Positions 21,883 to 34,911 of a stretch of DNA of 64,000 nucleotides are shown in pieces (positions within the stretch are counted from its first letter, which is position 1; each line of letters starts with the position of its first letter). The notes under the pieces are model-generated. The model was not told where the DNA came from. It saw nothing but the letters and a program-made list of their open reading frames with translations, and did not search any database. Source of the DNA: Bdellovibrionales bacterium (GTDB lineage Bacteria; Bdellovibrionota; Bdellovibrionia; Bdellovibrionales; JAUICD01); the NCBI GenBank assembly GCA_965262715.1, contig OZ253553.1:2016001-2080000 (forward strand), given 5' to 3'. The position numbers were made by a program, and so were the translations under genes.

Positions 21883-22083
21883 TGGTGGACACTGTCGCAA
21901 CCAATTCGAACCCTTTCAGAAATAGATTTTGAGTTTTGTTGTCAAAGCCGAGAACTCTTTAAATATCAAGAAATTGCCCCAGTAGTTAAAAAATTGATCC
22001 AACTTGGTATGAATGATCGTCAGATTGCCTTACAAGTTGGAGTTGATCCTAAAATGGTAAAGAAAGTAAAGTTATATTTATAG
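21883..22083 (+). pseudogene. Start-less ORF: putative C-terminal HTH segment of the island recombinase
   Basis: Open frame WWTLSQPIRTLSEIDFEF...LIQLGMNDRQIALQVGVDPKMVKKVKLYL* starting exactly at the att core. Confidence 0.65.
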
Positions 22084-22244
22084 CTTATGACACTATGTAT
22101 TATTGAGACGTTTAAACAAGGAGTTACACGATTTAAATTACAATCTCTTTTAAAGTATATCTTTAGACGAAGTCTTTTTACAAGATACCTGATATTTTGA
22201 AATTCAAATATCCAAGCTTAACTAAACACCTTTGGCAAGTCTTT

Positions 22245-24272
22245 TTAAGATGAAATATTGGACATGTTTTTTACTTCAGTAGATATTTTCTTGCATTCAT
22301 CTCCTGTTAGAGTCGTTCCGGATATAAAATCCTCTTTTAAGTGAGAAAGATATTGAGAAAGACTTTGAGTTTTTGTTTGCCCATGTATGCAACGTTTTGT
22401 TGAATAGCTTAAAATACAACAGACCTTAGCTCTTGTTATCCCTACAAAAAGCATCCTTGCACCTTCCCTCTGCAACTTATCATTTACTTTTTGTCTCTCA
22501 TCAGGCAATACTCCATTCTCCAACCCAGGTATAAAAACAATATCACTTGATAGGCCTTTACATCCATGTAAGCTCATAATTTTTACTGCTTCTCTTTCCT
22601 CCATTTTTTCTACTGGTATTTCAAGCCTCTTATAAATGGATTTAATCACTATTTCTCTATTTTTAAAGTTATCGGTTCTTATGTAGTCTTTTAATTCCTG
22701 AAGAGTTGCTTGCTCAGGGATGTCCTTTAGAAATTCACATAAGGATTTTTTATCTTCACTGTCAATAGGGTTTATTAATTTTATAATGTTATCTTTCCTT
22801 ACTTTAATCGTATCGGTATTTTGCCAATCAGCAATTCTTTTTAATTCTTGACGAATTTCTTGAATCACTTTTTTGGCTTTTTTATTGAAAATTTCAAGTG
22901 AACTATCTTCAAAAACTTTTCTAAAATTCAGTGGAGAAGAGATAATTTTATTAACTATATGGTTAATAGTTTGTGGGCCCACTCCATTTTTAATTTTAAG
23001 AATAGATCTAAGTGCAATATAATCATCTTGTCTTTCATAAGGTAGTCCAATTAATCTGATCCAAGCCAGAAGTGTTCGACCGATTTTTGTATCTCGAAAA
23101 TTTTCTTCTTTAAGTAATTCACATCTTATTCCCAGTATATCAAGAAATCCTTTAATCTTAGGAAACTGCACTGGTCTATTCTTTAACAATATAAAAATTG
23201 AATTATAAGACAAACCAGCTTCTTTGAGTTTTTTACATGACTTTGCTATAGCTTCAGCCTCTTTTGTATATCCTCTAAATTTCCAGTATTTGGTTACCCC
23301 ATCTATTTTTGGATTAGAATTTTTGCACATTGAAATATATTCTTTCTTTATTCGTTTTTCACCTCCATATCTTTCAATCAAATCAATAGCAAGTTCTAAA
23401 ATAAAAGGAGGGCACCTAAAGCAATGAGAAAGAAAATATGTTTTTGAAGAAGGGTACTTTTTATCAAAATCTTGTATACCTATAGGTGATGCATGCCGAA
23501 AGCTATAAATACTTTGATCATCATCCCCGGCAACAAAAATTTTAATACCTGACTGAATAATTAATTCAACAAATTTTAAATCCATCGGATTTAGATCTTG
23601 AAACTCGTCAATAATTAAATAAGTAATATTTGTAAAAGATAAAATATTTCTTGAAGAATCTTTTTCAATTTCTTTTACACATGATCTAATTATTTCACCT
23701 GGTAAAATTGCTGCATACAAATTTGTTCTGGATTTATAAAATCTGTCAAAATCTTCTATTTCTTCTTTAGATATAATATTTTCTTCAGGAACAAGCTCGC
23801 TATTTGTTGCCCATATAGACTCATGGTGCTTCCTCATTTCAGCAGCACGTTTTTTATTACAATTTTTTGATATAGAAAATTCCAAATCAAAAATATTTTC
23901 TATTTCCCATTCATCTAATACTAAAGGATCAACTGGAAATTTACTTAATTTCCCTGAAGATTTAAGAATTTTTAAAGCAAGTGAGTGAAGTGTTGAAACA
24001 TTAATATCATCTATATTCATTATACTATTACAATTTTTACAGTATTTATAGATACGTCTCTTTAAATCATTAGCAGATGCACGGGTATAAGATATTACAA
24101 AAATATTTTTAGGTTTAGCTCCCTGGTTTAGCAAATGTGAAACTCTTTGCTCTATAACTTTTGACTTTCCCGTTCCAGGTCCAGCAATCAAGCGAATTAA
24201 CGAAGAGCTATCCTGAGCAGCTTTAGCCTGGTTTTCTTCAGCTTCTTCGCATTCTTGAGGATCAAACCCCAC
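22245..24272 (-). CDS. UvrD/Rep-family SF1 helicase
   Basis: AGPGTGKS, STLHS, IDEFQD, AGDDDQSIYSFR, CFRCP, MSLHGCKGL, FVGITRAK. Confidence 0.93.
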   Translation of the reverse strand: MGFDPQECEEAEENQAKAAQDSSSLIRLIAGPGTGKSKVIEQRVSHLLNQGAKPKNIFVISYTRASANDLKRRIYKYCKNCNSIMNIDDINVSTLHSLALKILKSSGKLSKFPVDPLVLDEWEIENIFDLEFSISKNCNKKRAAEMRKHHESIWATNSELVPEENIISKEEIEDFDRFYKSRTNLYAAILPGEIIRSCVKEIEKDSSRNILSFTNITYLIIDEFQDLNPMDLKFVELIIQSGIKIFVAGDDDQSIYSFRHASPIGIQDFDKKYPSSKTYFLSHCFRCPPFILELAIDLIERYGGEKRIKKEYISMCKNSNPKIDGVTKYWKFRGYTKEAEAIAKSCKKLKEAGLSYNSIFILLKNRPVQFPKIKGFLDILGIRCELLKEENFRDTKIGRTLLAWIRLIGLPYERQDDYIALRSILKIKNGVGPQTINHIVNKIISSPLNFRKVFEDSSLEIFNKKAKKVIQEIRQELKRIADWQNTDTIKVRKDNIIKLINPIDSEDKKSLCEFLKDIPEQATLQELKDYIRTDNFKNREIVIKSIYKRLEIPVEKMEEREAVKIMSLHGCKGLSSDIVFIPGLENGVLPDERQKVNDKLQREGARMLFVGITRAKVCCILSYSTKRCIHGQTKTQSLSQYLSHLKEDFISGTTLTGDECKKISTEVKNMSNISS

Positions 24273-24376
24273 TTTTATTTCTCCTGTTAAATCAGAGTTA
24301 GAAGGTCTATTTTAAAAAAAATATTATTCAATTATAAGAAGTAATTTGTAAGTTACTTCAATATAACTTATAAAAC

Positions 24377-33945: not shown

Positions 33946-34422
33946 ATGAAAGCAGCGATCTATGCTAGATATTCCAGTGATAACCAAAGAGAGCAAAGTA
34001 TTGAGGATCAAGTCAGGGTCTGCCGAATTTATGCACAAAAACAAGGTATTGAAGTTTTAAATGAGCATATTTATGCTGATGAAGCTCGCTCAGGATCTAT
34101 TAGAGATCGAAAAGGGCTTGATGCTCTTATGAAATCTTGTGAGGAAAAAAGATTTGATATAGTCCTTGTTGATGATTCTTCTCGTATCTCAAGAGATGTT
34201 TATTATTTTAATCAACTCTTATGTCGCTTCATCTATCTTCATGTAAGACTGATCTCCATCAGTGACGACCTAGATACTCAAGAAGAAAATGCTAAAGTTG
34301 GATATCAGTTTCGCAGCATCTTCAACGAACTTTATCTAACTGATCTTAAAAAGAAAACTCATCGAGGACAAATGGGCCAGGTGATGCGAGGATTTATGAA
34401 TAAAAGTGAGAATAGCTCTTAA
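33946..34422 (+). pseudogene. Serine recombinase, truncated after the catalytic domain
   Basis: AAIYARYSSDNQREQSIEDQ, DDSSRISRD; ATG 33946 with GAGGAGG RBS; ends after HRGQMGQVMRGF, before the recombinase/zinc-ribbon domains. Confidence 0.85.
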
Positions 34423-34562
34423 AACAATAAAAAGGCAAAGAATTGCAAGATTCCACTGATAATAAAGTGCAATACCACATAAGATTGTCATTAAAATAGA
34501 TAGTATCTCATTCACAATAAGAAGGCTTTTTGAGACAATAAACTGATGATCTAAGGATAAAA

Positions 34563-34835
34563 TTTCCTTAACATTGTGTCAAAAAACGAAGGGTATCTCC
34601 CTCCAAAAAATGGTCAGGCTTTCTAGGTAATGACCTATTTGCTGACGGTGTAAACCGTCAGGGTCATTGCCAGAAAGTCGCCAAAAGATTTTCCTTAACA
34701 TGTTGTAAGAAAATGAGGAGTATCTCCCCTACTCAAAATAAACGGATTTTTGAGACAGTCAGCATTTTCTGAAGACGTGAGTCTTCAGGCTGATTGTCCA
34801 AAAATGGTCAGAGACCAGTTTATTTTGAGTGAAAC
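34563..34835 (+). repeat. Two family A repeats abutting the tRNA 3' end
   Basis: Same head, stems and GNRA hairpins (GACGGT-GTAA-ACCGTC; GAAGAC-GTGA-GTCTTC). Confidence 0.85.
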
Positions 34836-34911
34836 TGGTGGAGACGAACAGGATTGAACTGTTGACCTCTACAATGCCATTGTAGCGCTCTCCCAACTGA
34901 GCTACGCCCCC
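34836..34911 (-). tRNA. tRNA-Ala(GGC)
   Basis: GGGGGCGTAGCTCAGTTGGGAGAGCGCTACAATGGCATTGTAGAGGTCAACAGTTCAATCCTGTTCGTCTCCACCA; 76 nt, cloverleaf, G3-U70, encoded CCA. Confidence 0.96.

Follow-up and report, generated by a model that had tools for sequence, protein, structure and literature searches.

The question raised by the locus studied here is what becomes of an integrase when its gene contains the very site at which the element recombines. The locus is a 13-kb island at an alanine tRNA gene, between positions 21883 and 34911 of a 64,000-nt stretch of the genome of a Bdellovibrionales bacterium (GenBank assembly GCA_965262715.1, contig OZ253553.1, positions 2,016,001 to 2,080,000). We call this whole stretch the window, and the genome G000. 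One end of the island carries the start of a serine recombinase gene (int), and the other end a short frame that lacks a start codon and resembles a helix-turn-helix (HTH). An initial annotation, made from the window sequence, had proposed that the attachment site of the element (attP) lies inside int, and that the excised circle encodes an integrase (Int) with a C-terminal HTH.

Comparing the locus with its relatives, we conclude that this architecture, with attP in int and a tail severed by integration, is very probably that of the whole family. Integration cuts int at a pair of tryptophan codons (WW), restores the tRNA gene, and leaves the HTH tail kilobases away. That the tail functions as part of Int also seems likely. 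The complete reading, in which the tailed Int of the circle would promote integration and the tail-less Int of the inserted element would serve excision, we regard as reasonably probable, while the specific role of the tail in favoring integration is a suggestion we hold at only slightly better than even. The locus in the window is itself dead; the value of the observation lies in the family, which has live members whose two ends share a single contig (L010, L003, and L049).

The ends of the island are made of the following features (window coordinates).

21883 to 21889, plus strand: attachment (att) core TGGTGGA at the tRNA-distal junction; the predicted crossover dinucleotide GA is at 21888-21889
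21883 to 22083, plus strand: displaced integrase tail of 66 codons (att-encoded linker and three-helix HTH), with no start codon before Tyr28
21890 to 21912, plus strand: P′ half-site, which closes with AATTCGAACC at positions 14-23 from the center and mirrors the P arm of intact relatives
33946 to 34398, plus strand: first 151 codons of a large serine integrase, covering its catalytic domain and helix E; the open reading frame (ORF) ends at 34422 in unrelated sequence
34836 to 34911, minus strand: tRNA-Ala(GGC), the target, with the core at 34836-34842
34854 to 34859: T-loop motif TTGAAC of tRNA-Ala, positions 12-17 from the center, which is the B′ half-site motif

The core begins at 21883 and again at 34836, the 3′ end of the tRNA gene, as the initial annotation had it. 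The 66-codon frame (21883-22080, stop at 22081-22083) does open exactly at the core, its first Trp separated by a single sense codon from the stop upstream, and it has no ATG, GTG or TTG before the conserved Tyr28. The ORF at the other end, which contains a resolvase domain (PF00239, Pfam E-value 1.3e-23), lies on the same strand.

The integrase gene reads into the tRNA gene

If attP is inside int, then the integrated gene should continue into the target. We examined 43 loci, the 40 best ranked of 80 related loci plus L003, L004, and L066. The int frame enters the 3′ end of a tRNA or transfer-messenger RNA (tmRNA) gene without a prior stop in 37 of them; in the other 6 there is no tRNA call at that place, and in none does the frame stop before it. 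An integrase ending ahead of the att site, which would have spoken against the proposal, was thus looked for and found in 0 of 43, and an attP inside int is borne out at the level of the family. The targets are tRNA-Ser (16), tmRNA (15), and the tRNAs for Ala (2), Met (2), Asp (1), and Glu (1), and the related loci span Bdellovibrionota, Omnitrophota, Acidobacteriota, Chlamydiae, Actinomycetota, Gammaproteobacteria, and others.

The protein sequences behave in the same way. Relatives converge on a motif GSNxxxW(W/R) near residue 540, and then diverge at once. Among the 97 relatives of at least 540 amino acids (aa), 63 continue after the motif with text that looks like antisense tRNA, 9 stop within 3 residues, 1 continues into the tail, and 11 into something else; the remaining 13 have no match to the motif. 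All resolvase, recombinase, and zinc-ribbon domains are located before the core, and integrated relatives keep them. The window has the antisense-tRNA frame (WWRRTGLN) as well, but its int never reaches the tRNA; the claim that the integrated gene runs into antisense tRNA stands for the family and fails for this copy.

Searching phages for the integrase gave four distant matches only, 25-32% identical. A more distant clade of large serine recombinases (LSRs; about 30% identity, many of the loci L052-L087) also runs into antisense tRNA, in this case tRNA-Met, ending in VAGxGFEPxxFxL.

Natural fusions of integrase and tail

The displaced tail is short and easily missed. A search with the single 66-aa query finds it in 0 of 60 related genomes, and profile and full HMMER searches were required; a word-seeded search for longer homologs of the fragment found none among 31 candidates. 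The match that decides its identity is P0076, a natural, nearly full-length recombinase of 587 aa; its final 67 residues can be aligned to the fragment, starting at WW (38% identity over 61 aa, E-value 9e-10). The fragment could have matched an unrelated protein family; it matches the C-terminus of a fused recombinase instead. The same read-through from Int end to core to tail is present in 7 of 65 HMMER homologs of the fragment.

In G000 itself, we observe the P arm in three states. At C1:23711 it reads into tmRNA; at C1:1164647 it continues in frame into a copy of the tail 95% identical to that of the window; and at C1:1194410 it meets the arm belonging to a second island family, with a short tail as the result. 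Thus, that the circle would encode Int with a C-terminal HTH holds at the family level, by P0076 and by the in-frame junction at C1:1164647, but not for the window copy.

Tails and integrases also occur together. A profile built from eight tails matches 33 of the 43 integrase-bearing genomes at E ≤ 1e-4 and 32 of 43 at E ≤ 1e-8, against a background of 5 in 301 phylum-wide genomes at E ≤ 1e-8, two of which are known integrase carriers. We could form 29 pairs of Int and tail (the tails paired for G339 and G353 in the core comparison were not the nearest copies). A shared core is found in 28, and the two parts have the same codon phase in 27. By coordinates, 17 of the 29 have both parts on one contig and one strand, with the tail upstream of int.

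The tail has no plasmid match, and PHROGs has no match for it or for the small ORF that precedes int. Atlas look-alikes, useful as leads only, score 0.86 for the tail (a generic HTH) and 0.82 for the small ORF (hypothetical).

Several observations concern other tails. A second kind of displaced tail, an HTH with a recombinase-like domain, uses a different reading phase at the same core (G000:C1:1156660, 1161545-1162030, 1191980, and 808459), and a fused form of it is present in L009; P0001 and P0002 end by running out of frame into the arm of this second family. Another dead island in G000 consists of a P-arm remnant reading into tmRNA (C1:23340-23730) and a decayed tail fragment 18 kb downstream (41847-41917). 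G339 and G353 have 13 and 12 tail-profile matches per genome, which suggests long tandem arrays at several tRNAs. At L019:1518-3386, Int is in frame with the tail, the central att sequence between the inverted repeats is deleted, and there are stop codons upstream in frame.

Geometry of the attachment sites

Serine integrases typically use a symmetric attP of about 48 bp, a distal motif shifted by 5 bp in attB, and a two-base crossover (PMC3783163; here and below, what we say of a cited paper refers to the parts of it that were available). The consensus over 28 of the 29 pairs has the same form. Both P and P′ carry AATTCGAACC at positions 14-23, symmetrically, and the tRNA side bears TCGAACC, the T-loop, at positions 12-18, so that the B′ motif is shifted by 5 bp relative to attP. 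The two-base crossover and these motif positions are found for P, P′, and B′; on the host-downstream side (the B arm), the att consensus has no motif. Between the two junctions, identity reaches 2-7 nt leftward from a central GA (in one pair GG) and, in most pairs, 0 nt rightward. We place the crossover at the GA located five bases inside the CCA end of the tRNA.

This geometry explains what the protein ends look like. The P arm supplies the last bases of the tRNA and at the same time encodes GSNxxxW(W/R). Because all three positions of codons 1-10 in the tail are conserved, we read the GSN, WW, and IRT motifs as constraints on the DNA.

Selection on the tail

Conservation of third codon positions in the tail is limited to codons 1-10. 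Past these codons, identity at the three codon positions is 0.49/0.60/0.32, and the proportion of nonsynonymous differences (pN) is below that of synonymous ones (pS) in 378 of 378 pairs among 28 tails, a count that overstates the case, as the pairs are interdependent and many are saturated, so that the closest pairs (0.09/0.33 and 0.10/0.46) are the better evidence. These comparisons, and the start-codon counts that follow, use 28 of 30 tails, leaving aside the frameshifted tail of G368 and the mis-anchored insertion of G351. The pattern is that of purifying selection on the tail at the protein level beyond the att arm.

There is no start codon before the conserved Tyr in 7 of the 28 tails, that of the window included, and no ATG there in 21 of the 28. 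Pfam gives weak generic HTH matches for the eight tail members (sigma70-r4 in 6, HTH_23 in 6, GerE in 5, resolvase HTH in 2) and no match for the window fragment alone, and the tail resembles the N-terminal HTH of the IS5376 transposase (E-value 2.7e-6). An AlphaFold2 model of P0076, in which the alignment depth of the tail is one sequence and pTM is 0.46, places the LSR body ahead of residue 510; residues 511-547 form a linker of low confidence, and 544-586 three helices (block pLDDT 69-83). K-T-V is conserved in the recognition helix of the HTH.

The copy in the window is dead

The window copy of int is 97% identical over its 151 aa to P0003, an intact LSR of 566 aa. PF00239, PF07508, and PF13408 are all present in P0003; the last two are absent from the window copy and present in the relatives P0001-P0003, 95-97% identical to it. 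Pfam and PHROGs both place the gene among the serine recombinases, and it does not qualify as a tyrosine recombinase. A stand-alone small resolvase is ruled out by the existence of relatives of 561-566 aa at 95-97% identity, and the sequence is that of a pseudogene of the LSR family.

Three further features are needed to describe the damage.

21596 to 21637, plus strand: 42-nt segment of host flank, copy 1; the genome has two copies only, one per island end
21628 to 21882: units of a genome-wide, hairpin-forming dispersed repeat, on the host (B) side of the left junction
34399 to 34835: sequence that stands where int codons 152 to about 547 and the P arm would be expected, made of some 128 nt with no strong match elsewhere, copy 2 of the flank segment (34527-34568), and dispersed-repeat units

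The match of int to intact relatives stops after codon 151, and there is no P arm at the right end; the loss amounts to about 1.2 kb of int plus the P arm. The initial annotation was right that part of int had gone, but it had taken this to be the middle, when everything past codon 151 is missing. An assembly artifact is ruled out for 26736-34635 by contigs with 0 differences that cover 26736-34565 and 30239-34635, from runs of two studies, one of them possibly on the source sample.

The repeat common to the two ends is longer than the 7-nt core and is located to the left of both cores. It comprises 46 nt at 96% identity (21847-21892 and 34800-34845) and 42 nt at 95% identity (21596-21637 and 34527-34568), with units of the dispersed repeat, a family of 373 merged loci in the genome, between the two. 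The left junction has the expected order host, core, element. The order at the right junction is host-like sequence, core, tRNA, without the element's own arm. The probable history is that int from codon 152 onward, together with the P arm, was swapped for a second copy of the host flank, locking the cargo of the island (restriction-modification genes, Dsr1, and helicase) in place. The island is dead and immobile by its own means, and circularizing it would not yield an Int with a tail, because int after codon 151, P arm included, is lost.

The flank of tRNA-Ala in the two nearest relatives provides no ancestral empty site, because their neighborhood differs. No joint among those listed for the sequencing runs leads back to 21883 from the tRNA core, and the joints listed between the two ends fall within the dispersed repeat. 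No RNA data set containing the locus is listed among the sequencing runs, which speaks neither for nor against. Loose ends resembling the P arm before the core appear in single contigs of 2 of 4 runs, next to other flanks as well; this is weak and we do not count it.

By eye, the dispersed repeat ends at, or at most 3 nt from, the CCA end of 5 of the 39 tDNA genes in G000: Ala(GGC), Ala(TGC), Arg(ACG), Gly(GCC), and Asp(GTC).

A possible switch of direction, and its rivals

The direction of serine integrases is explained by the geometry of their coiled coils and by a separate recombination directionality factor (RDF). If a domain exists in the attP state alone, it would supply a second layer, written in the DNA itself. 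On integration, int acquires a few antisense-tRNA codons, which give it a short and variable end, and the tail (about 66 codons) is left at the far end without a conserved start. The tail would work only when fused to Int. Excision, or the tandem insertion of an element with the same frame, would rejoin the two. The tail most likely assists integration, since the incoming circle makes only the tailed form and must integrate, and since attB is one-sided: the tail may compensate for an attB whose recognizable motif is on the tRNA side only. The tail-less Int would perform excision with the help of a small ORF of 50-65 aa (motif LLDHIAxxLAEEY), found directly before int in 34 of 38 loci, which, to guess from position and size, may be an RDF. 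One could go further, and propose that a clade spread across phyla sets the direction of recombination by rewriting its own gene, with the circle-only HTH driving integration into a half-specified attB (any CCA end with a T-loop) and removal of the tail making an excisionase together with the small ORF. This stronger statement is tentative, and we would rather bet against it than for it.

Some observations weigh against the reading we favor. No excised circle was observed in the sequencing runs, examined as assembled contigs, and the fused sequences could all be junctions of tandem arrays instead of circles. In 10 of the 43 integrase-bearing genomes (many of them drafts) there is no tail match at E ≤ 1e-4, and the second tail copy in G000 ends after 40 codons. 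Gathering the tails by a protein profile favors sequences that look coding, and some ATG, GTG, or TTG precedes the conserved Tyr in 21 of 28 tails, at codon 5 in 10 of them. The interdependence of the tail pairs and the shallow alignment behind the structural model, both given above, belong here too.

How well do other explanations do? That the 66-codon frame is a chance ORF with no relation to the recombinase is an idea that the missing Pfam match and the empty word-seeded search might have encouraged, but natural fusions, co-occurrence, and purifying selection speak against it, P0076 and the junction at C1:1164647 refute it, and we give it practically no credence. In another reading, the tail is a small HTH gene in its own right, with a start inside the P′ arm and an in-frame fusion that is incidental. 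Gene callers do often place the start of the ORF at codon 5, which is TTG in 8 of 28 tails and ATG in 2. Yet the codon-5 TTG belongs to the palindromic TTGCAA of the att arm, the tails without any start before the Tyr include that of the window, most have no ATG there, and 27 of 29 pairs, from several phyla, preserve the codon phase of int; an independent gene seems to us improbable.

The remaining two alternatives grant that the tail works as part of Int. In one, the architecture is the same, and the HTH lets the circle's Int bind an operator or an origin, for autoregulation or circle maintenance, and leaves direction unchanged. This suits an HTH that looks like generic ones (sigma70-r4, HTH_23, GerE, resolvase) and like that of IS5376, and that hangs on a long low-confidence linker from an LSR core complete without it; on the other hand, many loci already have separate regulators and palindromes upstream of int, and no binding site for the tail was identified. 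We deem such a regulatory tail unlikely, if still the most serious competitor. In the other, the tail would act like a directionality factor fused to Int and keep the excised element from integrating again. Engineered Int-RDF fusions inhibit attP × attB and permit attL × attR (PMC12286644), and the tail is similar in size to an RDF, but here the incoming circle encodes the fused form only and must nevertheless integrate, and a separate conserved small ORF already precedes int; this option is even less probable than an independent gene. We therefore keep to the fused tail that assists integration as our preferred reading.

Relation to known systems

The closest precedent is found in the Dehalococcoides ssrA islands, for which McMurdie et al. 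(2011) describe that the 3′ end of dsiB always overlaps attL/attP at tmRNA, and that islands form tandem arrays, and propose that DsiB may reach full function only when it is on the circle or lies downstream of a neighboring island (PMC3146451). The initial annotation had found little described of this kind for serine recombinases. An overlap of gene and site was in fact known from dsiB, but the available parts of that account contain no conserved HTH tail. Judging by this description, the likeness is that of int overlapping attL at a tRNA or tmRNA gene, as in 37 of 43 loci of our family. The differences are that the DsiB C-termini are described as divergent, with no conserved displaced domain identified, whereas our family displaces a conserved HTH; that DsiB is accompanied by a partner recombinase (DsiA) and by a module of six genes with ParBc and Mom homologs, which the window island lacks; and that the module of our family is a regulator, the small ORF, and int, with targets in tRNA-Ser, Ala, Met, Asp, and Glu in addition to tmRNA.

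The initial annotation had also pointed to SSV1 and Mx8 as parallels. In the Mx8 integrase, attP is inside int, and integration gives the gene a new 3′ end that alters its activity without inactivating the enzyme (PMC6070905). This is the best functional analogy: in our family too, attP is within the gene, the C-terminus is swapped, and the catalytic core is kept. PMC4383910 implies that the Mx8 enzyme is a tyrosine recombinase; ours belongs to the serine recombinases, has short att sites, and ends in an HTH. The archaeal suicidal integrases (SSV1, pTN3, pT26-2) share a recombination site inside their own gene, which integration splits, but there the catalytic domain is separated and the split gives two inactive pseudogenes, in a design called exclusively archaeal (PMC8371274), whereas all LSR domains of our family stay on one side. 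What integration removes is an accessory tail; of the two parallels, then, the Mx8 one holds, and the SSV1 one, in which the enzyme is broken, does not. With the phage-type LSRs (LI/A118, phiC31, Bxb1), our family has in common the resolvase, recombinase, and zinc-ribbon domains, a symmetric attP, the 5-bp shift, and the two-base crossover (PMC3783163), and differs from them in an att site within the gene, tRNA and tmRNA targets, a single attB half-site motif, and an HTH found only on the circle.

The 2014 Islander paper, in its available parts, states that tRNA genes were not a known target of serine integrases. The literature that we searched, with few subscription papers within reach, contains no serine integrase that continues across attP into a conserved HTH tail, nor do the available parts of the tycheposon preprint, and a genetically encoded directionality switch is not shown there for any serine integrase.

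There are practical consequences. Integrases of this clade mined from integrated genomes carry the wrong C-terminus, and screens may have assayed the tail-less form. Enzymes that use the tRNA T-loop as attB could serve as portable insertion tools. And the design would explain many orphan "HTH proteins" of 60-80 aa at island ends, as well as annotations of recombinases that overlap tRNA genes.

Upstream module, cargo, and neighborhood

The rest of the island consists of the module upstream of int and the cargo, which make it, with its truncated integrase, a dead defense island.

22245 to 24272, minus strand: UvrD/GajB-like helicase, cargo
24377 to 28072, minus strand: SIR2-domain protein, best PADLOC match Dsr1, cargo
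28170 to 31118, minus strand: type III restriction subunit Res, cargo
31132 to 33135, minus strand: type III methyltransferase Mod, cargo
33224 to 33772, plus strand: MerR/HTH_17-like regulator (weak Pfam matches), with homologs upstream of int in many relatives
33769 to 33789: 21-nt palindrome upstream of the int operon, likely an operator, found in 5 of 19 other loci examined
33799 to 33968, plus strand: the conserved small ORF abutting the int start, frameshifted near 33898

Within the island, there is no ORF of GajA size to partner the GajB-like helicase; a gene similar to the helicase is present in the tRNA-Ala(TGC) array at G000:C1:1172613-1174661.

Next to the island, a 33-codon ORF with a start like that of a signal peptide (window 21501-21602) stops where the 42-nt flank repeat begins. 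A nicotinamide phosphoribosyltransferase gene (window 19715-21115) adjoins the island and was not found in the 4 closest relatives searched. At window 60001-62000 the GC content is about 0.5, versus 0.33 elsewhere, and we presume that this stretch is rRNA. Elsewhere in G000, four tandem tRNA-like copies with an 8-nt anticodon loop stand directly before tRNA-Trp (C1:2198524-2198863), and a 36-nt repeat has about 60 copies, which we take to resemble a CRISPR repeat of the Cas12a type.

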